Part shown: in pieces, positions 51 through 13,288 of the stretch
Layout: the number at the start of each line of letters is the position of its first letter
Numbering within the stretch: the stretch's first letter is position 1
DNA from: Acidobacteriota bacterium
Lineage (GTDB): Bacteria; Acidobacteriota; Thermoanaerobaculia; Multivoradales; UBA5704
Direction of reading: 5' to 3'
DNA length: 13,288 bases
Assembly (NCBI GenBank): GCA_040005235.1
Contig: JBDTZG010000103.1
Location: forward strand, 1-13,288
Made by a program: the position numbers and the translations under genes
The notes under the pieces: model-generated
Databases searched by the model: none
Told to the model about the DNA's origin: nothing
What the model saw: only the letters and a program-made list of their open reading frames with translations

Positions 51-160
51 CTTCCTGGGCTGGGAAGTCACTTCCTGGACCGGAGGGCCGCTATCTGGGG
101 TGGCTGGCGGTTTCCTGGGCCGGATAGCCGCAACCTGCGTCGGCTAGGGATTTCCGGTTG
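51..160. repeat. Degenerate 20-bp-period tandem array with semi-palindromic units (about 5.5 units)
   Basis: Units start at 51 cttcctgggctgggaagtca, 71 cttcctggaccggagggccg, 91 ctatctggggtggctggcgg, 111 tttcctgggccggatagccg, 131 caacctgcgtcggctaggga and 151 tttccgg (partial). Unit 1 contains the inverted repeat gacttcc/ggaagtc (49-55/63-69). Confidence 0.7.
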
Positions 161-172
161 AAATCGCAGGCC

Positions 173-1798
173 TCAGTGCACCATCGGCGCCTCGCCGCCT
201 TTTTTCGGCGTTTTCATCAGGAAAACCAGCGGCCCGACGATTACGAAGGACCAGGCGAGGATGCGGAAAACGTCCACGAAGGAGAGCATGGCGGCTTGGC
301 GCTGGACCAGGCCGATCGCTCCGGCGGCGGCACGTTGGGCCGCCGTGATGGGATCGGCGCCCGCCGCCATGTAGGCGCGCTTCAGGCCGTCGAGGAAGGC
401 GTTCGCCTTGGGATTGAAGGGATCGAAGTGAGCGCCGAGGCTCTGGAAATGGACCTGCTGCCGGCGGGCGAGGAGGGTGGTTGCGGTCGCGATGCCGATC
501 GAGCCGCCGATGTTTCTCATCAGGTTGAAAATGCTGGTGGCGTTGCCCATCTTCTCTTTCGAGATCGGGCTCATCGCGGCGGCCGTGAGCGGCACGAAGA
601 GAAGACCGAGCGAAACCCCCTGGATGAACTGCGGCCAGAAGATGTCCCAGTAGCCGGCATCCAAGGAAAGCATGCTGTGCCAGAAGAGAGTGAGCGCGGC
701 AAGATAGAACCCGGCGAGGAGCAGTCGCTTGGCGCCGACCTTGTTGAGGATCAATCCGACGATCGGCATCGCGATGAACGATCCGATCCCTCGGGGCGCC
801 ATCGCGAATCCGGCTTGGTACGCCGGGTAGCGGAGCAGCGACTGGAGAAAGATCGGCACCATGACGAGCGAGCCGTAGAGGCCGAAACCCATCACGGTCA
901 TCAGCAGGACGCCGGTCGCATAGGTGCGGTTCTTCAGAGCGCGCAGATCGACGATCGGCGCCGAGGTCATCAGCTCGCGAACGATAAAGGCGATCAGGCC
1001 GAGCACCGCCATCACGCCGAGCGAGGTGATCAGGTTCGAGGAGAACCAGTCGTCCTCCTGCCCCTTGTCGAGCAGAATTTGGAGCGCGCCGACGCCGAGT
1101 GCCAGGAAGCCCAAGCCCCAGTAGTCGATCTTCTCTCGGGCCTTCCGCAGGTACGTCGGATCGTGGATGTACAGCTGGATCATCAGCAGAGCCAGCAGGC
1201 CTACCGGCACGTTGATGTAGAAGACCCAGCGCCAGGACGTGTTGTCCGTCAGCCAGCCCCCCATGACCGGCCCGATGATCGGCGCCACGACGATCCCCAA
1301 GCCCCAAAAGGCCATCGCCTTGCCGCGCGATTCCGGAGGGAACGTCTCCAAGAGCACCGCTTGAGAGAGCGGTTGCAGGCACCCTCCGGTCAGCCCCTGA
1401 ACGACGCGGAAGAAGATCAGAAGCGGCAGCGTCGGCGCCAGGCCGCAGAGGAACGAAGCGATCGTGAAGCCTCCGACCGAAAGCAGCAGCAGGCGCTTCC
1501 TGCCGAAGCGGCTGGCGAGCCAGCCGGTCATCGGCAGGACGATCGCGTTGGCGACCAGGTACGAGGTGAGTGCCCAGGTGGCCTCGTCGACGGAGGACGA
1601 AAGGCTGCCCGCGATGTGCGGCAGCGAGACGTTCACGACCGTCGTGTCGAGAACCTCCATGAACGTCGCGAGCATCACCGAGATCGCGACGATCCAAGGA
1701 TTGACCAGCGGCAGAGCGGGCGCGCCGGGCGTGTTCGGCGTGTTGGAAACTCCGCGAACGTCTACCGCGCCTGCCGCGGCGAGGGATTGGGGCTCCAT
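173..1798 (-). CDS. emrB: DHA2 family MFS drug efflux permease (EmrB/QacA subfamily)
   Basis: 541 aa with many hydrophobic segments. Motifs: MEVLDTTVVNVSLPHI (motif D1), GWLASRFGRKR (motif A), FRVVQGLTGG (motif B), APIIGPVMGGW (motif C), WRWVFYINVPVG and RNIGGSIG. Lies directly downstream of an EmrA-like gene. Confidence 0.93.
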   Translation of the reverse strand: MEPQSLAAAGAVDVRGVSNTPNTPGAPALPLVNPWIVAISVMLATFMEVLDTTVVNVSLPHIAGSLSSSVDEATWALTSYLVANAIVLPMTGWLASRFGRKRLLLLSVGGFTIASFLCGLAPTLPLLIFFRVVQGLTGGCLQPLSQAVLLETFPPESRGKAMAFWGLGIVVAPIIGPVMGGWLTDNTSWRWVFYINVPVGLLALLMIQLYIHDPTYLRKAREKIDYWGLGFLALGVGALQILLDKGQEDDWFSSNLITSLGVMAVLGLIAFIVRELMTSAPIVDLRALKNRTYATGVLLMTVMGFGLYGSLVMVPIFLQSLLRYPAYQAGFAMAPRGIGSFIAMPIVGLILNKVGAKRLLLAGFYLAALTLFWHSMLSLDAGYWDIFWPQFIQGVSLGLLFVPLTAAAMSPISKEKMGNATSIFNLMRNIGGSIGIATATTLLARRQQVHFQSLGAHFDPFNPKANAFLDGLKRAYMAAGADPITAAQRAAAGAIGLVQRQAAMLSFVDVFRILAWSFVIVGPLVFLMKTPKKGGEAPMVH

Positions 1799-1804
1799 CG
1801 GCGT

Positions 1805-2986
1805 CTAGCGCACGAATACGGTCGGCACGGCCGACATTCCGGGGCGCAGGCGCGGCTCGCCCGCTTTTTCTTCGATCGAAGCCTTGTCGATCGAGATCTT
1901 GACCGGGATGCGCTGCACGACTTTGACGAAGTTGCCGGTCGCGTTCTCGGGCGGCAGCAGGCTGAAGCGCGAACCCGTCGCGGCGGAGATCGACTCGACC
2001 TTGCCGGGCCACGATTTGCCGCCGTAGGCGTCGACCTCGATTTCGACCCGCTGGCCGACCCGCAGCTTCGCGAGCTGGCTCTCCTTGAAATTGGCGACCA
2101 CCCAGACGTCGTCGAGCGAGACCAGGGAGAGGAGCGGCTGGCCGGCCGAGATCACCTGGCCCGGCTCGATCGATTTGCGGGTGACGACTCCGTCGACCGG
2201 CGCCTTCACCGAGCAGTATTCGAGGTCGAGCTCGGCTTTGCGCAGGGCGCTTTTCGCCTGGGCGATCCGCGCGTCGGTCGAATCCGCGCGGGCGCTCGCG
2301 ATTTCATTCTGCTGCGGCGCGGTGCGGGCGTCGGCCAGTCCGGCGCGCGCCGCGTCGATTCCCCCGGCGGCTTCGTTCACCGCGGCTTCCGCCGCGTCCT
2401 GACTGGCCTTCATCGCTGCGGCCGCCGCGACCGCCGCATCGTAGTCGCGCCGGGCGATCTCGTCCTTGGCGATCAACGTCTCGGCCCGCGCCAGATCCTG
2501 GCGCGCGCGCACCGAATTCGCTTTGGCCTCTTCGAGCTTGGCCTTGATGGAGGCGAGGCGGGCCTGCGCTCCGGCGAGTTGGCTCGCGGCCATCGACAGC
2601 CGGCTCGACGAGGCGGCCGAAGCGACCGGCAGGTTCGAATGCGCGCCGCGGGCGTTTGCCTCGGCCTCGGCCAGATCGGCCTGGGCCTTGCTGACCGCGA
2701 TCTCGAAGTCGCGCGGGTCGATCTGCACCAGCAGGGTGCCGGCCTTCACGTTGTCGTTCTCGCGCACCAGGACCTTGGCGATCGTCCCGCCGACGCGCGA
2801 AGCGATCGGGTTCAAATCCCCTTCGACCTGCGCATCGTCGGTCGAAATGTGGCCGGAGAGATGCCACCAGGCAAACCCGCCCCCGACGAGGGCGATCACC
2901 AGGATCAGCACCCCCACGAGAGCCACGCGGGAACGGTTGAAATTCCGGCCATTGCCGGAGGGTTTGTCCTCAGTCGTGTCGCTCAT
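1805..2986 (-). CDS. emrA: HlyD/EmrA family membrane fusion (periplasmic adaptor) protein
   Basis: N-terminal TM anchor, STDDAQVEG, lipoyl-like half motifs (VLVRENDNVKAGTLLVQID; VKAPVDGVV), an Ala-rich coiled coil, and the EmrA signature FSLLPPENATGNFVKVVQRIPVKI. Confidence 0.93.
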   Translation of the reverse strand: MSDTTEDKPSGNGRNFNRSRVALVGVLILVIALVGGGFAWWHLSGHISTDDAQVEGDLNPIASRVGGTIAKVLVRENDNVKAGTLLVQIDPRDFEIAVSKAQADLAEAEANARGAHSNLPVASAASSSRLSMAASQLAGAQARLASIKAKLEEAKANSVRARQDLARAETLIAKDEIARRDYDAAVAAAAAMKASQDAAEAAVNEAAGGIDAARAGLADARTAPQQNEIASARADSTDARIAQAKSALRKAELDLEYCSVKAPVDGVVTRKSIEPGQVISAGQPLLSLVSLDDVWVVANFKESQLAKLRVGQRVEIEVDAYGGKSWPGKVESISAATGSRFSLLPPENATGNFVKVVQRIPVKISIDKASIEEKAGEPRLRPGMSAVPTVFVR

Positions 2987-4416
2987 CGTCCGGATTCCCC
3001 GCGCAAGAACTTGAGATACGCCGGCTCGGCCAGCCCCAAAGCCAGGGCGAGCGCAGCCTTCGCGGCGTTATGGTCATAAAGGCTCGAGATGTAACTGTCT
3101 TCGGCGGTCGCCACGGCCTCCTGGGCCTGAACGACCTCGATGCTGCCGGCCGCGCCGGCGGAAAACCGGTCTTTGCCTTGAGTGAGCGCCTGCTCGGCGA
3201 GGTTCCGCGTGGCATCCGCGACGCTCACCCGCTCGGCCGCCGCATCGAGGTCCAAGAGCGCCGAGCGGACCTCGAAATCGGCGCGCGAAGCGAGATCGGC
3301 AAGCTCCGCCTCGCGCTGCCTCAAGGCGGCTTCCGCCTCGGCGGCTTTCGCTTCGACCTTGCCGCCTTCAAAGATCGGGATCTTCAACGCCAGGTTGTAA
3401 TTGAACGTGTGGTTCAAGTTGCCGGAGTTGTTGCCGATCTCGCCGTAGTCGGCCGATCCGACCAGCGACGGCAGCTTCTCGCCGCGGATGGAGCGGAGGG
3501 TCTGCTTCGCCGCTTCGACCCGCGCTTGGGCGGCCTTGATGTCGGCCCGGGTGGTGAGCGCGGTCTGGATCGCCTCATCGAGCGGCAGCGCGCGCAGCTC
3601 GGCGTAGGGCACCCGGTCGACCAGCTCGATCACCTGGCCCGGGGGCAGGCCGATTGCGCGGGCGAGGCTGAGCTTCTGCTTCGCCTGGTCGTTCTTCGCC
3701 GCGATCAGCCGCTGCTGTTGGGATTGCAGCTGAACCTGCGAGCGGAGCGCGTCGATCCCGGGCACGTAGCCCGCTTTGTGCCGGTCGTCGGCCAACTGGA
3801 AGATCGAACGGGCCGCTTCGACCTGCGCCTCGACCGCCGCGACCCGACTTTCGGTCGCCACCGCCTGGAGGTAGAGATTGCCGCAGACCAAGACCACCAG
3901 GCCGCGGGCGTCCTGGTAGGTCTGGCGCGTCGCTTCGAGGGTGGAACCGGCGGCGCGCTTCTTTTCGAGCAGGCTCCAATCGAACAGCGTCTGCTTGATC
4001 TTGGCGCGAGCGTCCAGCACCTGGAACGGACCGATGATCGTCGGCGTCCCGGGAAAGCTGAAACCGAACGCCGCGAGCGACAGCGTCTGGCGGGCGAAGT
4101 AGCTGTCGGCCGAGACCTGCGGCAGAAGATCCGCCAGAGCCTTGGCCCGCAAGCTTTCCGCGGCCTCGACGTTCTGTTCGGCGAGGAGAGCGCCCAGGTT
4201 ATGGTCGAGCCCGCGCGCCACCGCGTCGGCCAGGGTGAGGCGCAGCGGCTGAGGATCGACTTTGCCCTCGGGGACGCCGCCCAAGAAAGCCGGCGGCAGA
4301 GCCGGGCGCCCGGCTTGCGCGAGGGCAGCCCCGGAAAAAGCCGCGCAGTACGACAAAACGGCTCCGAACAGAGCCGCGGCCGGCGCTCTGCGGGAAAGTC
4401 GCGATCTTCCATTCAT
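2983..4416 (-). CDS. TolC/OEP family outer membrane efflux protein
   Basis: Start moved from 4488 to the ATG at 4416, which overlaps the TetR stop (ATGA, 4413-4416). Signal-peptide-like N-terminus ending AALA-Q. OEP-like motifs LTLADAVARGLDHN, LLPQVS, KLPSL, LKIPIFEGG and RFSAGAAGSIEVVQAQ. Its stop overlaps the emrA start (ATGA, 2983-2986). Confidence 0.9.
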   Translation of the reverse strand: MNGRSRLSRRAPAAALFGAVLSYCAAFSGAALAQAGRPALPPAFLGGVPEGKVDPQPLRLTLADAVARGLDHNLGALLAEQNVEAAESLRAKALADLLPQVSADSYFARQTLSLAAFGFSFPGTPTIIGPFQVLDARAKIKQTLFDWSLLEKKRAAGSTLEATRQTYQDARGLVVLVCGNLYLQAVATESRVAAVEAQVEAARSIFQLADDRHKAGYVPGIDALRSQVQLQSQQQRLIAAKNDQAKQKLSLARAIGLPPGQVIELVDRVPYAELRALPLDEAIQTALTTRADIKAAQARVEAAKQTLRSIRGEKLPSLVGSADYGEIGNNSGNLNHTFNYNLALKIPIFEGGKVEAKAAEAEAALRQREAELADLASRADFEVRSALLDLDAAAERVSVADATRNLAEQALTQGKDRFSAGAAGSIEVVQAQEAVATAEDSYISSLYDHNAAKAALALALGLAEPAYLKFLRGESGR

Positions 4417-5039
4417 TGTGAGGAAATCCCTTTCCAGGCGAGATCGACGAGAAGCTCCACCTCTCGTTCGATCGATCCTTCGGTCCAACCGACCAGCCGC
4501 TGGGTCACAGCTCCGCGCGTAAGGTTTGCGATCGCGAAGGCCACGTAGCGGGCCGGCAGATCGCGCGCCTCGCCAAGGCTCTCGCCCAGGCGAATCGCGT
4601 CTTCGAGCAGGGCCACCTGGTCGAGAAAGACCTTTTCGAACCCGCTGTCCCGCGTCTCGTGCTGGGTCACCATGTTGCCCAGCTCGGCGAAATAGATCTT
4701 GAAAAAATCGCGATGCTCGTCGCAGTAGCGGAGCTTCGTCTCGACGTAGGCCCGAATTTTGTCGTGAAGCGTCTCGGCGCCCCAGACCTTTTCCTGGGTC
4801 TTGGCGGCGAGCGCCGAGAGCCCTTCGCGCAGCGCCGCGAAATAGATGTCGCGCTTCGACGGGTAGTAGAGGTAGATCGTCCCCTTGGCGACCCCCGCCG
4901 CCTGCGCGATCTCGTCGACCGAGGCGCCGGCAAAGCCTTTTTCGGCGAAGACTCCCTGGGCCGCCGCGAGGATTTCGGCTTGGCGGAACTCGGCGAGGAC
5001 GTCCTTCTTCGTGCGTCGCTGTGGGGTCTCGGAGATCAT
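4413..5039 (-). CDS. TetR/AcrR family transcriptional regulator
   Basis: TetR HTH: ILAAAQGVFAEKGFAGASVDEIAQAAGVAKGTIYLYYPSKRDI. First gene of the efflux operon. The start is either ATG at 5039 or TTG at 5060 (uncertain). Confidence 0.93.
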   Translation of the reverse strand: MISETPQRRTKKDVLAEFRQAEILAAAQGVFAEKGFAGASVDEIAQAAGVAKGTIYLYYPSKRDIYFAALREGLSALAAKTQEKVWGAETLHDKIRAYVETKLRYCDEHRDFFKIYFAELGNMVTQHETRDSGFEKVFLDQVALLEDAIRLGESLGEARDLPARYVAFAIANLTRGAVTQRLVGWTEGSIEREVELLVDLAWKGISSQ

Positions 5040-5137: not shown

Positions 5138-6793
5138 CTACGGCTCGGGCATCCGGAGGCCGTCGAGCGCGAGCACGCGAACGCTTCCCGGGGCGTGATC
5201 CAGGGCGATGACGGCCCGATGAGGATCGGCGATCCGGCGCATCAGCTCTTGGCCGTCCACCAGACGGCTGCCGCCCGTTGCCTGCCAGCCCGGAAGGCCG
5301 GTCCAGGTGTGAACCACCTCAAGGCCGGCGTTTCTCAGTCGAAAGTACCGGAGGCTTCCCAAAGCATTCTCGAACGCGGGAGCCGTTATCCCTCCGTCGG
5401 CCCAATACGCGGGTGCGTTGACCAGGGTGACCGTGGCCGGGGCCTCTCGCGAAGGCAAAAGAGCCCGCGCCTGCTCGACCGAGAGCCGCAGGGAGTCGTA
5501 ACTGCGCCGATAGAGCTCCTGGGCACGATGAAGCTCGCCTTCGGCGGAGAACAGGAGGATGGAGGAAAGGAGCACGGGTAGGCCTAAAGCGACCGCGGCG
5601 CGGCTCAAAGCAACCGTACGGACGGTTCCAGTCGTCTCCGCAGTTCCGGCGGGAGCCGCCCGCGCGATGCGGCGCGACAGCCGCTCGCCCCACCGGCAAA
5701 AACCAAAGGCAAGGAGCAGCAAGCCCGGAATACTGGGCAGGAAGCGGTGGCGCGGCGCGAGCGGTACCGCGACCGCCTCGATCGCGAGATGGATCCAAAA
5801 CCAGAGCATGAGCAGCCGGGTCCCTCTTCCGGCGCGGCGGAAGATCCAGACCGAAGCGACAAGCGCCGACCCGATCAGCAAGAGGGGGCGGCGGCTGTCG
5901 ACCAGCGCGGTCGTCGAACCGAGCCGCAGGAGGCCTTCCAGCACGTCGTAGGAGCCTCTCAAGGTGAAGATCCCGAGGAGGCATTGGGCCAGCGAGTGAA
6001 GGCGGACCGTGTCGAGCCCCGGTGCGATCGCTCCGGAGGTGGCGCCGGCGAAACGAACCTGAGCGAAGATCAACGCCGCAACCACCGGCAAGGTGGGCGC
6101 AAACCGCCGGAGCAGGCCTTTGAGCAGGTCGAACCGAAAAAGGCTTCGGATGCCCTCCCTCTCGGCCGAGCGAACGAGGCACCAGACGACGGCGACGGGC
6201 AGAAGCGTGATCGTCCCCTCGTAGGTGAAAACGGCTCCCACGAGAGCGACCGCGAACCCCCACGCGGCGCCGCGCGGAGGCCCTTCCTCCGCGAGCTGAA
6301 AGGCGGCGGCCACCGCGCCGATCGCGAACGCCGCGGCCAGGCAATGGAGATTGCCCACCAGCGGCCAATAGGTGACATCGGGAAAGGCGGCGCTACCAAT
6401 CAGCAGCCCCCCGGCGAGCAGGCCCGCCAGGGGATGGCCGAGCAGCCGCCGCCCGAACCAGAACGTCAGCCAGCCGACCAGCGCAAGCTGCCCAATGTTG
6501 GCGATCGCGTAGAGCCGTTCGCGGTCGCCGAAAAGGAGATAGAGAAGGCGGCTCCAGGCGCTCGCGATCGGGATGTAGTGATAACCAAGCGGGGTTGTCA
6601 GCGCCACGCCCCACCTCTGTGCGACCTGGAAGAGGATCGCCCAAGAGTCGCCGACAAACCCGAGCCGGCAGGCGCCGGCATGAATCGCCCCGGCCTCCAG
6701 GCCAAAGAAAAGCGGTGCGGGAAGTGACCACTCCCGCCACCTCCAGAGGCGCCCGAGTGACCGGGTGCAGGAAGACGCTCGCGGGCGGGTCAC
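5138..6793 (-). CDS. Polytopic membrane protein, possibly GT-C-fold glycosyltransferase-like (paralog 2, about 551 aa)
   Basis: Only the 3' part of the 1010-aa track ORF looks real. Proposed GTG start at 6793 overlaps the TGA of paralog 1 (GTGA, 6790-6793). It has many TM segments, an early loop GFVGDSW...GYHYIP, TYEG, and RHRFLP before the last TMs, followed by a soluble C-terminal region. It aligns end to end with 6790-8331. The function is inferred from architecture only. Confidence 0.75.
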   Translation of the reverse strand: MTRPRASSCTRSLGRLWRWREWSLPAPLFFGLEAGAIHAGACRLGFVGDSWAILFQVAQRWGVALTTPLGYHYIPIASAWSRLLYLLFGDRERLYAIANIGQLALVGWLTFWFGRRLLGHPLAGLLAGGLLIGSAAFPDVTYWPLVGNLHCLAAAFAIGAVAAAFQLAEEGPPRGAAWGFAVALVGAVFTYEGTITLLPVAVVWCLVRSAEREGIRSLFRFDLLKGLLRRFAPTLPVVAALIFAQVRFAGATSGAIAPGLDTVRLHSLAQCLLGIFTLRGSYDVLEGLLRLGSTTALVDSRRPLLLIGSALVASVWIFRRAGRGTRLLMLWFWIHLAIEAVAVPLAPRHRFLPSIPGLLLLAFGFCRWGERLSRRIARAAPAGTAETTGTVRTVALSRAAVALGLPVLLSSILLFSAEGELHRAQELYRRSYDSLRLSVEQARALLPSREAPATVTLVNAPAYWADGGITAPAFENALGSLRYFRLRNAGLEVVHTWTGLPGWQATGGSRLVDGQELMRRIADPHRAVIALDHAPGSVRVLALDGLRMPEP

Positions 6794-8331
6794 GGGCCAA
6801 GCTCGAAGGCGACCACGGCACGGAACGGATCGGCGCCCCGTCGAAGGACCTCCGCCTCGTCGACCAGCCGGCTGCTGTCCGTGGCGACCCAGCCCGGGAC
6901 TTCGACCCACGTGTGGATCAGCTCGATGCGGGTGCCGCCCAGACGGAAGAGGGCGAGACCGTTCATCGCATTGTCGAAGGCGGGGACGGCGATTCCTCCT
7001 TCCACCAGGTACGCGGGGAAGTTGACCAGCGTCAGGGTGGCCGGGGTGTTGCGCGAGGGCAGAAGGGTTCGGGCCTGCTCGACCGCCACGCGGAGAGCGT
7101 CGAAGCTGCGCCGATAGAGCTCCTGGGCGCGGTGCAGCTCGCCCTGGGCGGAGAGGATCAGAACGGACGTCAGGACCAGGGGGATCGCAAGGGCCATATG
7201 CACGGTGCCGGGAGCGGGTGCCACGCGCCGGGAGACCCATTCTCCCACCTGACAAAAGCCGAGCGAGAGCAAAAGCAGCCCGGGAATGCTGGGCAAGAAA
7301 CAGTGCCGCGACGAAAGCGGCAAAGCCAGGATGGCGACGAAGAGATGGATCGCCAGCCAGAGCACGAGCAGAGCGGCTCCCCGCCGTGCGCGGAGAAAGG
7401 TCCAAACGCCCAGCGCTAGGGCGAGCCCAAGAAAAACCAGAATGCGGTGCCACTCGATGCTCATCGGAGTCGTGCCGATGTACAGGAGAGTCTCCAAGAC
7501 CTCGGACGAGCTTCTCAAGGTGAAGATCCCGATCAATCCGTGGGCGAGAGAGTGAAGGCGTTCGAGATCGAGAGCCGGCGTGATCGCGCTCGCGGTGGCC
7601 TGGGCGAAACGAATTTTGGCCAGGACCAGCGCCGCTACCACCGGCAGGCTCCAGGCGAAACGACGGAGCATGCCTTGGAGGGCCGCGACTCGGAAGAGGC
7701 TTCGAGCACCGGCCCTCTCGGCCTGCCGCACGAGGCACCAGATCAGCGCGACCGGCAGAAGAGTGATCATCCCCTCGTAGGTAAAGCAGGCTCCGGCAAG
7801 CGCGGCGGCAAACCCCAACGAGGCGCCGCGCGGCGGATTTTCTTCGGCGAGCGCGGCGGCGGCAGCGATCGCCCCGATCGAAAATATCGCGGCCAGGCAA
7901 TGGAAGTTTCCGACCAGCGCCCAATAGGTGACGTCCGGAAAAGCGGCGCTGCCGATCAAAAGGCTCCCCGCCAGGAGCCCCGGCAGGGCCTTGCCGAGCA
8001 ACCTTCGCCCCAGCAGGAAAGTCAGCCAGCCGACGACCGTAAGCTCTCCGATGTTGACAATTGCGTAGAGCCGCTCGTGGTCGCCGAGCAGCATGTAGAG
8101 AAGGCGGGTCCAGCCGCTCGCGAGCGGAATGTAGTGATAGCCGAGGGGGGTTCCCAGCGCTGCCCGCCATCCGGGAGCGGCATGCATGAGGATCGCCCAG
8201 GAGTCACCGACGAACCCGAGCCGACGGACGCCGGCATGAATCGCCCCGGCCTCCAGGCCAAAGAAAAGCAGTGCGGGGAGTGACCCGTCCCGCCACCCCC
8301 AGAGGCGCCCTAAAGGGTCCCTGCGCATCAT
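6790..8331 (-). CDS. Polytopic membrane protein, possibly GT-C-fold glycosyltransferase-like (paralog 1, 513 aa)
   Basis: Hydrophobic multi-TM ORF with GFVGDSW, GYHYIP, AFPDVTYW, TYEG and RHCFLP, all conserved in paralog 2, which supports coding status. The function is an inference. Confidence 0.78.
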   Translation of the reverse strand: MMRRDPLGRLWGWRDGSLPALLFFGLEAGAIHAGVRRLGFVGDSWAILMHAAPGWRAALGTPLGYHYIPLASGWTRLLYMLLGDHERLYAIVNIGELTVVGWLTFLLGRRLLGKALPGLLAGSLLIGSAAFPDVTYWALVGNFHCLAAIFSIGAIAAAAALAEENPPRGASLGFAAALAGACFTYEGMITLLPVALIWCLVRQAERAGARSLFRVAALQGMLRRFAWSLPVVAALVLAKIRFAQATASAITPALDLERLHSLAHGLIGIFTLRSSSEVLETLLYIGTTPMSIEWHRILVFLGLALALGVWTFLRARRGAALLVLWLAIHLFVAILALPLSSRHCFLPSIPGLLLLSLGFCQVGEWVSRRVAPAPGTVHMALAIPLVLTSVLILSAQGELHRAQELYRRSFDALRVAVEQARTLLPSRNTPATLTLVNFPAYLVEGGIAVPAFDNAMNGLALFRLGGTRIELIHTWVEVPGWVATDSSRLVDEAEVLRRGADPFRAVVAFELGP

Positions 8332-8346: not shown

Positions 8347-8442
8347 CGCGAAAACTTGCGGTCCGGATGGCTACGGGCGAAACTCTGCCTCAGCGTCCGT
8401 CGAACGGCGGAGAACCGGATCTCACTCCAAAGGAGCGTCTCG

Positions 8443-9051
8443 ATGAAGATCGAAGAGATGATCGCCGCGGTCCAGAAGAAGCTCGGCGTCGACGTGGACG
8501 GTCGGGCCGGGTCGGAAACCTGGGGCGCCATCTACGCCCAGATCGTCAAACCGACCATAGGCGGCCTACCGCCCGGCGAGGCCATCGACGAAGGGGACCC
8601 TCGGAGCGAGAGGAACATCGCCACCCTGCTCCCAGAGGTTCAGCCTGAGGCTCGCGCCCTGATCCAAAAGGCGGCGCAGAACGGCATTCGGATCAAAATC
8701 ATCAGCGGCCTCAGAACCTTTGCCGAGCAGGATGCGCTGTTCGCCCAGGGCCGCACCGACTCGGGATCGATCGTCACCAATGCCCGCGGCGGATTCTCGA
8801 ACCACAATTTCGGCATCGCGTTCGACGTAGGGGTTTTCGAGGCAAACAAATACCTGCCGGAATCGGTCAAGTACAAGGCCGTGGGTGTGTTGGGGTCGGA
8901 GCTTGGGCTCGAATGGGGCGGGAACTGGAAGACGATCGTGGATCAACCGCACTTCCAGCTCAGGCCGTCCTGGGCTGACGAGCTCTCCGAGCGGGAGATG
9001 CTCGCAGAGCTCCGAGAACGGCACGCCGCAGGCACCCCGGTCTTTTCATGA
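8443..9051 (+). CDS. M15 family Zn metallopeptidase (CwlK/Ply118-like L-Ala-D-Glu peptidoglycan peptidase) with a short N-terminal PG-binding-like segment
   Basis: ATG at 8443 follows SD aaggag. Motifs: SGLRTFAEQDALFAQGR, VTNARGGFSNHNFGIAFD (SxHxxGxAxD), LEWGGNW and DQPHFQ. N-terminal VQKKLGVDVDGRAGSETW resembles the PG_binding_1 DGxxGxxT motif. Confidence 0.9.
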   Translation: MKIEEMIAAVQKKLGVDVDGRAGSETWGAIYAQIVKPTIGGLPPGEAIDEGDPRSERNIATLLPEVQPEARALIQKAAQNGIRIKIISGLRTFAEQDALFAQGRTDSGSIVTNARGGFSNHNFGIAFDVGVFEANKYLPESVKYKAVGVLGSELGLEWGGNWKTIVDQPHFQLRPSWADELSEREMLAELRERHAAGTPVFS

Positions 9052-9113
9052 AGCCGCGGCTTCGATAGACATCGCGCCAGGGCCGGCAATCGCCTCCCTG
9101 GCGTTCTTTTCGC

Positions 9114-9263
9114 CTACACCGTTCGCGGGCCGCGAACGAAATGGACAATCGCCGCAATGACGGCGATGATGATCAAAAGGTGGATCAGGCCACCGGCCAC
9201 ATGGAAGACGGCGAATCCGAGAATCCAAGCGACGAAGAGCACGAGAGCGAGGCCAAGTAACAT
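9114..9263 (-). CDS. Small membrane protein, lmo0937/DUF5670-like (49 aa)
   Basis: ATG at 9263 follows SD aaggag. Sequence MLLGLALVLFVAWILGFAVFHVAGGLIHLLIIIAVIAAIVHFVRGPRTV carries the family pattern WxLG...GGLIHxLL. Confidence 0.88.
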   Translation of the reverse strand: MLLGLALVLFVAWILGFAVFHVAGGLIHLLIIIAVIAAIVHFVRGPRTV

Positions 9264-9663
9264 TGGGCTTCTCCTTGGAAGCGCATTCGGCATTGAGCCA
9301 AGATGCGTGTGCTCCCGATTGTGCAAGGTCGGCGCCAGGGGGACGGGCGTTTTTCGGGCTCGCCGCTGCTAGAGCTTTCCGCCGGAGCGGAAATCGTCGG
9401 AAAAATTAGCAGGGCGGGCTCTGTCGTAACGCTTGCAGGCAGGATTCCCCCTACCGACCCTTCGCCGCAGCCTCGATCGCCTCGTCGCGGCTTACTCGAA
9501 GTCGGATGCCTCGTCTCCGCCCTCCCACCGCCCGGGAGAGGTGGACCCGTCCGGCCCAACGGGCCGGACTCTTGGGTTTGCCGGTGCCGCCTCCTCGCTG
9601 TCGATGCCGAGGTAGGCACCGTTCCGGTGTCAATCCACCGATCGAGGCGAAGTTTTCTAACTC

Positions 9664-9700
9664 TTGGCGTCGGAATCGACGAGAGGTATACTTACGGGCC
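9664..9700 (+). promoter_or_regulatory. Sigma70-type promoter giving a near-leaderless transcript of the HTH gene
   Basis: TTGGCG (9664-9669), 17-bp spacer, TATACT (9687-9692), 8 nt, then ATG at 9701. Confidence 0.6.
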
Positions 9701-10306
9701 ATGAAAAAGAAAGAGAGCCCTCCGGAGCCGGTCCTGCGCCCCAAGGTCACACGCGGCAAGAAGCCGCGCAAACGGAAGATGGCCCCGGTGGAGCGGGCGC
9801 GCTGGCTGCTGGGCCACCTGATCCAGATGGCCGGCCAGGGACGGCGCGACGTCGACGAGCGGCTCGGCCTGACCCGCGGCCAGGTGAGCCAGGTGCTCAC
9901 CGGCCGGGTCTCGCTCAAGCTCGAGATGATCCTGCTGATCCTCGACGAGGTCGGCATGGAGCCGGCGATGTTTTTCAAGCTGCTGTTCGAGCTGCCGGAC
10001 GAAGGCGACAACCCGTTCCTCGCGCTGCTCTACCGCAAGATGCTCGAAAGCGGCGCGATGAAACCCGAGCACCTGATCCCCCCGTCCGAACCGGCGCCGA
10101 TTCCGGAGGATGAACTGCGGCGCCTGGTACGCGAGGAGCTGAAAGACGTCCTCGCCCTGGCCAAACGAACACCCTCCCGCGCCAAACGCCTGGCTGCAGA
10201 GCGCAAAAAGACCGAGCCCTTGATCGGCGACATCGTGAAAAAGATCAAGCGCAGGCGCGCCAAGAAAGAGCCGCCGGAAAAGCCGCCACCGAAGCCGAAG
10301 GACTGA
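9701..10306 (+). CDS. XRE/Cro-like helix-turn-helix protein with Lys/Arg/Pro-rich termini (201 aa)
   Basis: GQGRRDVDERLGLTRGQVSQVLTGRVSLKLEMILLILDEVGMEPAMFF fits the XRE HTH pattern. Codons have strong third-position GC bias. Start placed at ATG 9701, behind the predicted promoter. Confidence 0.8.
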   Translation: MKKKESPPEPVLRPKVTRGKKPRKRKMAPVERARWLLGHLIQMAGQGRRDVDERLGLTRGQVSQVLTGRVSLKLEMILLILDEVGMEPAMFFKLLFELPDEGDNPFLALLYRKMLESGAMKPEHLIPPSEPAPIPEDELRRLVREELKDVLALAKRTPSRAKRLAAERKKTEPLIGDIVKKIKRRRAKKEPPEKPPPKPKD

Positions 10307-10390
10307 GCTGCCCCCAGAGAAGCACCGCGAAGGTCGCGAGTATCGATCCGCCGGGTCCCAGGCTAAGACATTTGTTTCCTGTTCTTTGAA

Positions 10391-10461
10391 CGCAGACTCC
10401 GGGGACCGCTTCCCCAGGCTCCGGCAGCGGAGCTCAGGCCGCGGGAAGCGGGCGGAGTGCG
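10391..10461. other. Long nested hairpin directly upstream of the 21-bp array
   Basis: Perfect nested stems actccg/cggagt (10396-10401/10453-10458), ccgcttccc/gggaagcgg (10406-10414/10443-10451) and gctccg/cggagc (10418-10423/10428-10433), with a gcag loop. Confidence 0.65.
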
Positions 10462-10464
10462 CCG

Positions 10465-10737
10465 TGTACAGGTGCACAGCGTCCGGGCACGACTGCAAAG
10501 TTGCGGCGCACATGTGCATTGCGGCTGCGCACAGGTGCATCGGCGAATTGCACAGGTGCACTGGCGGATTGCACAGCTGCAAAATGCCGGCGCACCTCTG
10601 CAAAATCGCCGCGCATAGGTGCACTGGGCCGTTGCACCGATGCAAAATTCCAGTGCGCATGTGCACCGCTGGATTGCACGAGTGCACGGCTCCGTGGCAC
10701 ATCGGCAAAACCTCAGCGTACCGCTGCAAAACGGTCC
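10465..10737. repeat. 21-bp-period array: 13 x (12-bp palindrome YGCAC-NN-STGCA + variable 9-bp spacer)
   Basis: Cores at 10465 tgtacaggtgca, 10486 ggcacgactgca, 10507 cgcacatgtgca, 10528 cgcacaggtgca, 10549 tgcacaggtgca, 10570 tgcacagctgca, 10591 cgcacctctgca, 10612 cgcataggtgca, 10633 tgcaccgatgca, 10654 tgcgcatgtgca, 10675 tgcacgagtgca, 10696 ggcacatcggca and 10717 cgtaccgctgca. No indels; all spacers differ. Confidence 0.95.
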
Positions 10738-10738
10738 C

Positions 10739-10768
10739 TTGCGCCGCCCGCCAGCCTTCTGCTAGTCT
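10739..10768 (+). promoter_or_regulatory. Predicted rpmB promoter
   Basis: TTGCGC (10739-10744), 18-bp spacer ending in TGc, then TAGTCT (10763-10768, extended -10), about 70 nt upstream of the rpmB ATG. Confidence 0.5.
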
Positions 10769-10838
10769 CCGCGTTCCTTTCGGGGTGGGCGCCGTAGTGT
10801 GCTCAACTCCCAAGCAGGCAGCGAATCAGGAGAAGCAC

Positions 10839-11066
10839 ATGGCCAAGCAATGCGAAATCTGCGGCAAGGGCACGAAGTTCGGCCGCAATGTCAGCCACGC
10901 CCACAACGTCACCCCGCGGACTCTCGAAGCGAATTTGCAGCGGGTCCGCGCGTTGGTCGAGGGCACCGTCCGCCGGGTTCTCGTCTGCACCCGTTGTATC
11001 CGCAGCGGCGCGATCACCAAGCCGCCCGTGCGTACTTGGACCCCCGAGCAGACCGCCGCGAAGTGA
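10839..11066 (+). CDS. rpmB: 50S ribosomal protein L28 (bL28), zinc-ribbon (C+) type
   Basis: MAKQCEICGKGTKFGRNVSHAHNVTPRTLEANLQRVR...VCTRCIRSG is the L28 signature. SD aggag precedes ATG 10839; 75 aa. Confidence 0.97.
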   Translation: MAKQCEICGKGTKFGRNVSHAHNVTPRTLEANLQRVRALVEGTVRRVLVCTRCIRSGAITKPPVRTWTPEQTAAK

Positions 11067-11080
11067 AGTAAGGAACGCTT

Positions 11081-11140
11081 GGCGGGGTCCGCGTCGTCGG
11101 ATCCCGCGAGAGTCTCCCCGCCTGGGGCTATCCCCAAAAA
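11081..11140. terminator. Hairpins between convergent rpmB and rel, possible terminator region
   Basis: gcggggtccg/cggatcccgc stem (11082-11107, one G-U pair) and tgggg/cccca (11123-11136). Neither has a correctly placed U-tract. Confidence 0.3.
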
Positions 11141-13288
11141 CTACAGCGAGTCGTCCGATCCCGCGCCGGTCATTCGGCGTTCGACCCGGCGTACCCCGGA
11201 GATCGAGCGGACGATGCGGAGCAGCTTGTCCAGGTGCTTGCGGTCGCGCAGCTCGACCACGGCTTCCACCCGGGCGTGCTCCCCTTCGGTTTCGGCCGAT
11301 ATCTGCGAGATGTTGCTCTCCGCTTTGGTGATCGCCTCGGTGACGCGGGCGAGCACCCCCGGCTGATTGTCGGCTTCCATGGTGAGGGCGATGCGGTAGC
11401 GGTCTTCGCTCCGGCGTGCCCATTCGACTTCGATCTCGCGATCCGGGTTGTAGAGAAGGTTGCGGACGTTCGGGCAGTCGGCGGAATGCACCGAGACCCC
11501 TCGGCCTCGCGTGACGTAGCCGATGATGTCCTCGCCGGGGAGCGGGTTGCAGCACTTGGCGAGGTAGGCGAGCAGATCCCCCTGGCCTTTCACCAAGATC
11601 GGACCGTTGCCGAACGGCAACAGCCGGCCGACCGCCTGGCGTAGCGGGCTTGGCTTGCTGATCGGGACCTCGGTGAGCCGGTCATCGCCCACCACGCGGG
11701 TGAGCACCTGGCGGACTTCGATCTTGCCGAAGCCGATCCGCGCGAGCAGGTCGTCCGGCTTGCCGATCCCCTCCTCCGCGGTGTACTTCGCCAGTTCCGC
11801 GCTCTCCAGAACCTTTTTCGGATTGAGCTTGTAGCGCCGCGCTTCTTTTTCGAAGATCCGGCGGCCGATCTCCATCGCGCGCAGTTTCTGCTCGACGTTC
11901 AGCCACTGGCGGATCTTGCTCTTCGCCCGCGAGGTGACCACGAACGACAGCCAGTCCCGGCTTGGCTGGCGGCCGGTGGTGCTCAAGATCTCGACCAGAT
12001 CGCCGTTTTGGAGCGCGGTCCGGATCGGCACCAGGCGGCCGTTCACCCGCGCGCCGGAGCATTGGTGTCCCAGGTCGGTATGGACGTGGTAGGCGAAATC
12101 GAGCGGGGTGGCGCCGCGCGGGAAGGCGAACACCTCTCCCTTGGGGCTGAAGACGTAGACCTCGTCGGGGTAGAGGTCCACTTTGAGCGCGGTGAGGAAA
12201 GCCCGCGAGTCCGGCACCTCCTGCTGCCATTCGAGCAGCTGGCGCAGCCAGACCACGTTGTCGCCGTCCTTTTCGCGCACGCCCGGCCGGCCCTCTTTGT
12301 AGCGCCAGTGGGCGGCGATCCCTTCTTCGGCGATCAGATCCATGTCTCGCGTGCGGATCTGGACCTCGAACGGCTGGCCCCCTTCGCCCACCACCGTGGT
12401 GTGGAGCGACTGGTAGAGGTTCGGCTTCGGCATCGCGATGTAATCTTTGAATCGGCCCGGGATGGGTCGCCACCCCTGGTGGACGATTCCCAAAGCTCCG
12501 TAGGTGTCGCGCATGCTGCCGGTGACGATGCGAAACGCCAGATAGTCGTAGAGCTGGGAGATGTCGATCCCCTGGCGGCGAAGCTTCTCGTAGATCGAGT
12601 AGTAGCGTTTGATCCGGAAGCTGATCTCGGCCTCGATGCCCGCGGCTTCGAGCGTTCGCGAGAGCCTGTCGCGCACGCGCAGGGTGAGCGATTCGCCGAG
12701 TTTTTTCTTTTCCTCGATCTTCGAGTAGAGCTCGGCGTACTGGAGTGGAAACAGGTGGTAGAAGGCGAGGTCTTCGAGATCTCCTTTGACCCGCGACATA
12801 CCCAGCCGGTGCGCGATCGGAGCGTAGATCTCCAGGGTTTCCCGCGAGATCCGCTGCCGCGCTTCGACCGCCAGATGTTCGAGCGTCTGCATGTTGTGCA
12901 GCCGGTCGGCGAGCTTGATCACGATCACCCGGATGTCCTTGGCCGAGGCGAGGATCATCTTGCGGAAGGTCTCAGCCTGCGCGTCGTCGCGGCGGACGTA
13001 TTCGTGCCGGCCGATCTTGGTGACGCCGTCGACCAGCTCGGCCACTTCGAGGCCGAATTCCGCCTCCAGGATCTCGCGCGTGGTGAGGGTGTCTTCGATC
13101 ACGTCGTGCAGCAGGCCGACCGCCGCGCAGACCTGGTCGAACTTCAGCTCGGCGAGTAGGAAGGAGACCTGGAGCGGGTGGATCATGAACGGCTCGCCGG
13201 AGCGGCGAAGCTGATCCCCGTGCATGCGCAGCGAGAAATCGTAGACCGCGCGCAGAAAGCTCTCGTCGACCGGCCGGCCGGCGAGGCC
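11141..13288 (-). CDS. rel: Bifunctional (p)ppGpp synthetase/hydrolase, RelA/SpoT family (5' end outside the window)
   Basis: The frame stays open from the window edge (GLAGRPVDESFLRAVYDFSLRMHGDQLRRSGEPF...). HD hydrolase LLHDVIED; synthetase motifs RIKRYYSIYEK, RFKDYIAMPKPNLYQSLHTT and EVQIRT; TGS (FPRGATPLDFAYHVHT); zinc finger CCNP...HSADC; C-terminal ACT domain. Confidence 0.97.
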   Translation of the reverse strand, partial: GLAGRPVDESFLRAVYDFSLRMHGDQLRRSGEPFMIHPLQVSFLLAELKFDQVCAAVGLLHDVIEDTLTTREILEAEFGLEVAELVDGVTKIGRHEYVRRDDAQAETFRKMILASAKDIRVIVIKLADRLHNMQTLEHLAVEARQRISRETLEIYAPIAHRLGMSRVKGDLEDLAFYHLFPLQYAELYSKIEEKKKLGESLTLRVRDRLSRTLEAAGIEAEISFRIKRYYSIYEKLRRQGIDISQLYDYLAFRIVTGSMRDTYGALGIVHQGWRPIPGRFKDYIAMPKPNLYQSLHTTVVGEGGQPFEVQIRTRDMDLIAEEGIAAHWRYKEGRPGVREKDGDNVVWLRQLLEWQQEVPDSRAFLTALKVDLYPDEVYVFSPKGEVFAFPRGATPLDFAYHVHTDLGHQCSGARVNGRLVPIRTALQNGDLVEILSTTGRQPSRDWLSFVVTSRAKSKIRQWLNVEQKLRAMEIGRRIFEKEARRYKLNPKKVLESAELAKYTAEEGIGKPDDLLARIGFGKIEVRQVLTRVVGDDRLTEVPISKPSPLRQAVGRLLPFGNGPILVKGQGDLLAYLAKCCNPLPGEDIIGYVTRGRGVSVHSADCPNVRNLLYNPDREIEVEWARRSEDRYRIALTMEADNQPGVLARVTEAITKAESNISQISAETEGEHARVEAVVELRDRKHLDKLLRIVRSISGVRRVERRMTGAGSDDSL

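Follow-up and report, generated by a model that had tools for sequence, protein, structure and literature searches.

In CRISPR loci, direct repeats of roughly 23-55 bp alternate with unique spacers that are about as long. Among interspersed bacterial repeats, the boxB module of the BOX elements of Streptococcus pneumoniae is about 45 bp long, the MIRU units of Mycobacterium tuberculosis measure 40-100 bp, and BIMEs are composed of alternating inverted REPs with variable linkers. To our knowledge, strict phasing is not a feature of the REP/BIME kind, nor are a dyad core and strict helical phasing features of the BOX or MIRU families. REPs themselves are described as palindromic repeats of 20-40 bp present in high copy number (PMC3733652). 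The F-plasmid centromere, sopC, is described as 12 direct 43-bp repeats, each with a 16-bp inverted repeat bound by SopB (PMC3177203).

The DNA analysed here is a stretch of 13,288 bp (termed the window throughout) from a member of the Acidobacteriota, in which a preliminary description had singled out an array of short palindromes in a 21-bp register. The array lies just upstream of rpmB (Table 1). Acidobacteriota are abundant in soil and poorly studied. The system closest in design is a partition-site or iteron array lying beside the gene of its binder. Like sopC, the arrays described below are head-to-tail repeats at integral helical turns (here 21 bp, with a 42-bp super-period), they have a dyad core in each unit and looser spacers, and their complete cassettes carry beside the array the gene of a protein modelled as a dimer. 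They differ from sopC in the length of the core, which is 12 bp and not 16, in the lack of a ParA/SopA-type ATPase or Rep gene beside the arrays read, and in a candidate partner without ParB, ribbon-helix-helix or HTH signature. Furthermore, they are chromosomal, with eight arrays in the TGCAC family and about 125 in the class per genome, and most copies are orphans.

In genomic behaviour, REP/BIME and BOX or MIRU are the nearest analogues. Short palindromic units, intergenic, lineage-specific, clustered and present in many copies, are common to REPs, BIMEs and the arrays studied here; however, the units here keep one orientation and a strict 21-bp period, the palindrome is formed by two 5-bp arms around a 2-bp centre with no compensatory arm change in 525 units, there is no linked Y1 transposase, and the array follows a conserved head of 170 bp. 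With BOX and MIRU the arrays share interspersed intergenic copies, a conserved end module and variable tandem units, the copy number of which varies between strains much as it does at the ppk locus described below, but there is no sequence relationship and the unit here is of 21 bp. Like a CRISPR locus, the array has a leader-like head, after which conserved and variable segments alternate. Here, however, these segments measure 12 and 9 bp and the spacers fall into two related classes arising by unit duplication; Rfam returned no CRISPR-DR match, and no cas genes were seen in a Pfam scan of the ORFs in the flanks read at eight arrays. The preliminary description was thus right in setting the array apart from CRISPR.

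Rfam 15 gave no match at or above the gathering score on either strand of the whole window, ARAGORN detected no tRNA in it, and the array family had no match in plasmid and phage collections. In the accessible literature on Acidobacteria/Thermoanaerobaculia and on helically phased centromere-type sites, subscription journals aside, we found no description of such arrays. Judged by these comparisons, the array belongs to no named family that we could find, as the preliminary description had also stated.

The 21-bp array and its surroundings

In the 21-bp register starting at 10465, all 13 units carry 7 or 8 of the 8 fixed core letters (GCAC...TGCA), and the registers neighbouring the array on either side only 1-5. 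This register scan bore out the layout first described, in which conserved 12-mer cores alternate with 9-bp spacers that all differ, with no indels over 13 units; the end units are among the most degenerate, as had been noted, with scores of 7 at units 1, 12 and 13. Allowing at most one mismatch and counting both strands, the core occurs 25 times in the window, 24 of them within 10465-10737, against a chance expectation of 10.0 ± 3.0 for the whole window, and none of 200 shuffles reached 25. Pairwise identity among the 13 units averages 0.73 in the 12-bp cores; in the 9-bp spacers it averages 0.36, compared to 0.26 expected from spacer composition. With cores kept and spacers as different as this, the array is not an ordinary slippage VNTR, in line with the first description. 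Tandem Repeats Finder reported just three overlapping period-21 pieces of the array because the units are too diverged for it. We conclude that the array is real, non-coding DNA of 13 units without indels.

Two properties ascribed to the array required amendment. The spacers had been called unique and are indeed distinct (13/13), but they are not random: the units belong to two types that tend to alternate, GTGCA-CTGSCGGAT-like and CTGCA-AAAYNCCGG-like, which gives the array a 42-bp super-period. The core had been called palindromic and is dyad-like, but not a perfect palindrome, since, among 525 units drawn from 40 non-redundant arrays, 63% have G at position 8 and 33% have C; it is a pseudo-palindrome, or imperfect dyad. 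The strict two-turn phasing of this core stands as the defining property of the array. Two features give the array its polarity: many spacers begin A-rich (TGCA-AAA), and the head lies 5' of it.

Across the same 525 units the core positions carry 1.3-1.8 bits of information and the spacer positions 0.2-0.6 bits, core conservation being inflated by the gathering of units by core score. Pairing covariation, within units or across spacers, amounted to a mutual information of at most 0.05 bit at every pair, in a test that is blunted by the same way of gathering units. At a few positions mutual information slightly exceeded the shuffle null (0.003-0.015), and compensatory double changes were rare. 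The absence of covariation fits recognition of sequence rather than of an RNA stem.

Table 1. Position of the features discussed, in window coordinates.
Feature	Position	Strand	Remarks
Lineage-specific segment (HTH gene, head and array)	9418..10733	.	replaces 60 bp in the closest congener, G003
XRE-like HTH gene	9701..10306	+	ORF listed from 9506; likely start is the ATG at 9701
Conserved non-coding head, about 170 bp	10294..10464	+	directly 5' of the array
Array body	10465..10737	+	13 tandem 21-bp units, each a 12-bp core (xGCAC-NN-xTGCA) and a 9-bp variable spacer
Putative rpmB promoter	10739..10768	+	TTGCGC, 18 nt, TAGTCT
rpmB (ribosomal protein L28)	10839..11066	+	Pfam Ribosomal_L28, E 5e-19

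The array ends one base before the putative -35 element of rpmB. At the rpmB locus all six congeners have kept the CTTGCGCC...TAGTCT block and the 5' leader; the array is absent from all of them, the upstream sequence is different in every species, and everything upstream of about 10734-10757 differs. A consensus promoter scanner did not call this promoter and found no sigma-70-like site in 10200-11200, so that its placement, which follows from conservation and hexamer likeness, is a probable one. The start of rpmB is shared by 14 of 16 relatives, whose orthologues begin at the ATG at 10839, and a GGAG box lies upstream of that codon. Beyond rpmB, relA/spoT is convergent.

On the other side of the head lies the XRE-like HTH gene, with Pfam matches to HTH_31 (E 0.0012) and HTH_3 (E 0.0046) that are both under the curated cut-off. 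The gene arose by recent duplication, a copy on contig C126 being 87% identical, and its family has 15 members in the genome. None of the eight closest homologous loci of this gene has a head or an array within 1.5 kb. The adjacency of HTH gene and array is therefore not general, and the HTH protein was rejected as a general partner of the arrays.

Copies of the element and their turnover

The array is not a singular element: the genome (6.22 Mb, 66% GC, 140 contigs; termed G000) contains eight arrays with the TGCAC core, of 7 to 22 units each, and none was found when the same scan was run on the reversed genome sequence. The search of the genome and its relatives proposed in the preliminary description was carried out with these eight copies as its outcome, together with unrelated neighbouring genes and a difference in unit number at one locus, ppk (see below). 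The flanks of the eight arrays, unrelated to one another, contain rpmB, ppk, an AlkZ-like gene, argR, a zinc-ribbon gene next to argG, an M19 dipeptidase gene, an E1 dehydrogenase gene and a cytochrome c gene.

The head precedes five of the eight arrays, that of the window included, and 12 further copies of head plus array were found in loci of relatives. An nhmmer profile of the head matched the genome at exactly five places (E <= 2.7e-34), all of them abutting arrays, the next match having an E-value of 0.25. In all 17 head-bearing copies the array has the same polarity relative to the head. Among 40 non-redundant TGCAC arrays (eight from this genome and 32 from relatives), 17 have a head, three have on the head side a small gene described in the next section and 20 have neither, six of these 20 having flanks too short to tell; the proportions are moreover biased because ten loci were fetched through the head itself. 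Several identities of the head were considered and discarded. As an RNA, it gave no consensus fold with RNAalifold on either strand (-1.87 and -3.67 kcal/mol); as a peptide, it has no frame that is kept open, most copies having stops in every frame; and as a remnant of the small gene, its profile matched nothing in the small-gene-bearing TGCAC loci at E <= 10. A tblastx comparison of the sequences upstream of the head-bearing copies revealed no shared genes.

A pattern of three units with at most two mismatches was found in six of the seven other genomes of the genus (37-101 matches each) and in four genomes from three other genera of the family (4-14 matches each), whereas 24 genomes representing other families of the order had no match. 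The reversed pattern, used as control, gave no match in all genomes but one. Public contigs matching the cores are titled Thermoanaerobaculia, Holophagales or Acidobacteria. An exact three-core scan of one genome per species yielded at least 116 stretches from many phyla. As relatives of the element these were rejected, being mostly near-identical simple 21-bp tandem repeats with a spacer identity of roughly 0.6-1.0 (a few at 0.52-0.58), as compared to 0.3-0.5 in the TGCAC array family; simple tandem repeats can match eight letters by chance, and most of the stretches were therefore not counted. On the strength of these searches, the TGCAC element is regarded as confined to one family of Acidobacteriota. 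A short contig titled Gemmatimonas (L034) carries the TGCAC family type and may be a binning error.

Comparison of orthologous loci pointed to changes in the presence and length of the element. When the window was aligned by blastn with the corresponding locus of G003 (L156), positions 8356-9417 and 10734-11064 aligned and 9418-10733 did not. A contig assembled in DNA run X4 diverges from the window exactly at 10737. Only in G000 and G003 does the ppk stop codon have head and array after it; in four other species homology ends at that codon, beyond which the sequence is unrelated. The ppk array of G000 comprises 10 units and its orthologue in G003 comprises 6; the two differ by exactly 84 bp, in register, and a hybrid unit marks the junction. 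In a count by eye, their orthologous units differ at 2 of 60 core and 3 of 45 spacer positions, too few to bear on selection. At the E1 dehydrogenase locus, homology stops about 70 bp before the array in five of five relatives, and the far flank lies on other contigs. Additionally, the array at C111:117736-117861 contains three exact 42-bp copies, which indicates a recent duplication. Judged by these alignments, the element is gained and lost between species and its length changes in register.

A wider class of arrays and a candidate partner

Array regions were then defined irrespective of their sequence, by an identity of at least 0.52 at a given lag over 168 bp. A lag of 21 gave 82 regions (75 after merging, 31.7 kb), a lag of 20 gave 27 regions, none of which overlaps the lag-21 set, and a lag of 42 gave 85 regions, 16 of them outside the lag-21 set; lags of 10-19 and 22-33 gave 0-10 regions each. 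The genome thus holds about 125 phased arrays of unrelated sequence with periods of 20, 21 or 42, which make up roughly 0.5-0.8% of its DNA. Each array family has its own core, and many of these are dyads, such as CTGGNCCAG, CACCGGTG, GGAAnnTTCC and GAAAATCGATTTTC. Coding-like lag-3 identity was rare, being observed in 5 of the merged set of 75. Phasing characterises the class as a whole rather than one sequence.

Clustering of the ORFs that flank arrays brought out a family of proteins of about 120 residues, the genes of which lie 0-146 bp from nine different arrays, the array being always 5' of the gene. A profile of this small gene detected 27 copies in the genome, 16 of them with an array of period 20, 21 or 42 at most 700 bp upstream. 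Five copies have after them or nearby a gene of the XRE-like family to which the HTH gene of the window belongs, and complete cassettes carry just the small helical protein, sometimes together with an HTH gene. The small gene family is present in 33 of 36 genomes of the taxonomic family, where it numbers 1-38 copies per genome, and was not found in any of 24 genomes that represent other families of the order; it is restricted to the same taxonomic family as the arrays. When the best small-gene copy was taken from each of the 28 genomes with enough flank, an array was found upstream in 18 and in downstream control windows in 2.

TGCAC arrays adjoin a small gene at four loci, L009 (in genome G004), L053 (in G002), L110 and L210, and at such loci the small gene takes the side of the head, pointing away from the array; two congeners have the small gene flanking TGCAC arrays. 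Two of these TGCAC-linked small proteins share 79% identity, and G000 contains no closer match to a TGCAC-linked protein than one of 48-50%. None of the eight TGCAC arrays of G000 has a small gene beside it, and these arrays are orphans because the genome is without an orthologue of the TGCAC-linked protein.

Searches with the small protein in Pfam, PHROGs, NCBIfam and PADLOC gave nothing above chance. In its AlphaFold2 model (mean pLDDT 84.6) a helical hairpin leads into a basic tail, and the best Foldseek match in the PDB had an E-value of 6; the protein's neighbours in the Atlas are unnamed Acidobacteriota clusters. Modelled as a homodimer, the protein reached an ipSAE of 0.67 as compared to 0.00 for the best control, a mark that 20 of 30 known homodimers and 1 of 23 monomers attained in calibration; as the small protein was modelled with a purpose-made 9-row alignment, these counts apply only roughly. 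Three homodimer runs had at least 81% of their contacts in common, with a partner pLDDT of at least 75. The models support pairing of the small protein as a homodimer, and it is the best candidate for the class of binders. It is to be noted that 11 of the 27 small genes in this genome, and 10 of the 28 taken across genomes, have no array at the threshold used, and that about 60 of the 75 merged 21-bp arrays have no small gene within 1.2 kb. Furthermore, a link between array family and protein clade is also expected if whole cassettes are copied together, so that recognition is not proven by it.

A proposed docking lattice and rival readings

We propose that the array is a phased docking lattice for a dimeric protein, present here as an orphan copy abutting the rpmB promoter; we consider this reading evenly balanced between right and wrong. 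The element is a dispersed, modular and non-coding unit composed of a head of about 170 bp followed by 6-22 units of 21 bp, in which each 12-bp core would serve as a site for a dimeric, sequence-specific DNA-binding protein. A spacing of 21 bp corresponds to two turns of B-DNA and places all sites on one face of the helix, and neighbouring bound dimers might then touch and form a cooperative lattice that coats or wraps the array. The putative binder would be of the kind of the helical-hairpin protein of about 120 residues with a basic tail that is encoded directly downstream of such arrays. The array of the window would have arrived together with the duplicated HTH gene, coming to abut the -35 region of the rpmB promoter, and it may have an effect on rpmB. 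What leads us to a docking lattice is the combination of helical-turn periods in about 125 arrays, length change in register, core identity without covariation and a neighbouring protein modelled as a dimer. Among the functions listed in the preliminary description, a docking platform is the best supported, though indirectly, by the class-wide periods, the identity of the cores and the dimer-modelled neighbour; this much of the suggestion stood, and binding itself is what we infer. The cores are well kept in a genome without the cognate gene, which would mean either that another protein reads them or that the arrays are young.

The main rival, which we hold to be possible but doubtful, is selfish or semi-selfish repeat DNA, interspersed in the manner of REP/BIME, BOX or MIRU. 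A recombinase or transposase would recognise the cores or the head, the cores would be kept as the site of that enzyme and not for the host, and unequal recombination would change the length. This would account for the variable presence of the element among congeners (none of six at rpmB, and at ppk only G000 and G003), for arrays at synteny breaks (the E1 dehydrogenase locus and the X4 contig at 10737), for the modular layout with its variable unit number, for the recent exact 42-bp duplications in C111:117736-117861 and for the lack of relationship among the genes that flank the copies. However, the element has no linked mobilising gene: of 11 Y1_Tnp matches in the genome, none of the five strong ones (RAYT/IS200-type) is near a 21-bp array, and one weak match is found at a distance of 418 bp from an array of unrelated sequence; the two junctions read showed neither terminal inverted repeats nor target duplications; and a 5-2-5 core cannot form the stable hairpin on which enzymes of the REP type act. 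The periods of 20, 21 or 42 common to about 125 unrelated arrays would also be left unexplained. The two readings are compatible. Should the arrays be selfish repeats, they would provide a new marker of strain variation, one that is easily typed because the arrays change in 21-bp steps.

An improbable alternative is a transcribed repeat RNA, with the head as its promoter and the array as a long non-coding RNA or 5' leader in which GCAC-N3-UGCA motifs sequester an RNA-binding protein or are processed into units. The constant side of the head in 17 of 17 head-bearing copies agrees with such an RNA, conservation of the identity type also fits recognition of a single-strand motif, and the array folds more stably than shuffled sequences on the plus strand (z = -3.8) and on the minus strand (z = -4.1). 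This excess is nevertheless expected of any array of palindromes, and the pairings are arbitrary and long-range. No covarying stem was seen within or between units, the head is without conserved structure on either strand, and the window offers neither a sigma-70-like site in 10200-11200 nor an Rfam match. RNA sponges, moreover, tolerate variable spacing, and the arrays read show no out-of-register change. The processed repeat RNA suggested in the preliminary description thus found no support.

That the array serves rpmB or the HTH gene locally, as an operator or upstream activating array recognised by the HTH protein itself, is quite improbable. Position speaks for it: the array stops a single base short of the putative -35 element of rpmB, an XRE-like HTH gene lies directly upstream, and HTH gene and array arrived as one segment of 1.3 kb. 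All six congeners, however, keep the rpmB promoter block without the array, the eight closest homologues of the HTH gene are without head or array within 1.5 kb, and the other seven arrays of the genome flank unrelated genes. The idea of a private operator of the neighbouring genes fails on the six congeners that lack the array upstream of rpmB, and on these comparative grounds we reject it for rpmB and for the HTH gene.

Returning to the docking lattice, its acceptance would mean that these soil bacteria commit some 125 loci, and a gene family present in 20-40 copies, to helically phased protein-DNA lattices, some of them set against promoters of core genes such as rpmB, and it would provide a tractable system for the study of cooperative DNA coating, of ATPase-free centromere-like sites or of a new class of mobile cassettes. 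More tentatively, and in our estimate probably going too far, the arrays and small proteins might together form a DNA-lattice system of multiple specificities in one family of Acidobacteriota, with up to 38 paralogous dimeric proteins per genome, each having its own dyad core, on arrays of 20, 21 or 42 bp, and with orphan arrays acting as working parts (decoys, boundary elements or promoter-proximal roadblocks) and not as debris. Such a system would amount to a sequence-addressed chromatin-like or partition-like layer, undescribed in bacteria.

A coding heptad repeat, whether as a His-x-Cys repeat extending L28 at its N-terminus or as some other repeat protein, was suggested by ORF 10386-11066, which runs uninterrupted across the array in the reading frame of rpmB, and by the equality of 21 bp with seven codons; we give it virtually no credence, as stop codons and the comparison of orthologues have already refuted it: the array on C124 has stops in all six frames and other arrays have them in several, the would-be third positions are the best conserved ones or are A/T where the genes of this genome have a GC3 of 0.80-0.92, L28 orthologues align from the ATG at 10839 and are preceded by unrelated sequence in six of six congeners, and lag-3 periodicity is absent (0.22 in the array against a genome mean of 0.305). 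No codon-type conservation across copies is seen in these stops and A/T positions, which disposes of the ordinary repeat protein named as the counter-hypothesis in the preliminary description. By the same comparisons ORF 10386-11066 is deemed spurious and not a gene. Arrays of this class create long spurious ORFs and break short-read assemblies, and annotators should mask them; ten of the 75 merged 21-bp arrays lie at contig ends.

The ppk locus in G000, G003 and G002

In the genome studied (G000, contig C66) and in its congener G003, the conserved non-coding head and the TGCAC array occupy the position after ppk, which in another congener, G002 (locus L184), carries two copies of the GC-rich hairpin GGGGCGCACGGCCGTGCGCCCC in their place. 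This hairpin is a REP-like element, and it may be the substrate of the genome's Y1 transposases. On the G000 side, the ATG following the ppk array opens a frame of 27 codons only. The GNAT-type acetyltransferase gene adjoining this array downstream looks broken, and a piece of about 200 bp at this gene lies in the orientation opposite to that found in four congeners.

Head, array and HTH gene in G007

In genome G007, the gene after the head and a TGCAC array belongs to the XRE-like HTH family as a distant member (E 2.9e-8), with that genome's rpmB located on the same contig about 4 kb downstream of this group. When the G007 locus is compared with the window, the parts are the same and their order is different.

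Other repeats and phased arrays in G000

The 21-bp phased array around a two-unit TGCAC match at C7:493 is of a second kind, with GCGTYC as its conserved core. The palindrome GATAGCCGCTATC is the basis of a separate array family with a 20-bp period, which is included among the 27 regions of this period in G000, none of them overlapping the 21-bp set. Other tandem repeats were also observed: three and a half copies of the 11-bp repeat GCCGATAAACC sit directly past the terminator of the HTH paralogue on C126, and two copies of a 40-bp repeat (75% matches) lie at the window start.

Coordinates of the features described (G000 unless stated)
Feature	Contig or locus	Position
Long ORF, 973 aa	window	158-3079
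Long ORF, 492 aa	window	3070-4548
Long ORF, 1010 aa	window	5138-8170
Similarity to G004	window	5504-8318
rpmB (L28)	window	10839-11066
40-bp tandem repeat	window	72-155
Region of the GNAT-type gene	C66 (L148)	3210-4400 of L148
GCGTYC-core array	C7 (L154)	291-627
GATAGCCGCTATC array	C56	53641-54016
GATAGCCGCTATC array	C82	41333-41717
GATAGCCGCTATC array	C82	130610-131086
GATAGCCGCTATC array	C118	19302-19663
GCCGATAAACC repeat	C126 (L181)	69470-69535
Locus with head, array and HTH gene, G007	C675 (L140)	23251-26372

Other genes of the window

No Pfam family was assigned to any of the three long ORFs at E <= 0.001. A locus of the congener G004, next to its rpmB, is a diverged match (70-75% identity) to part of the window. 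The L28 protein encoded in the window carries two Cys pairs, CEIC near its start and CTRC later, and is predicted to be the zinc-ribbon form of the protein.
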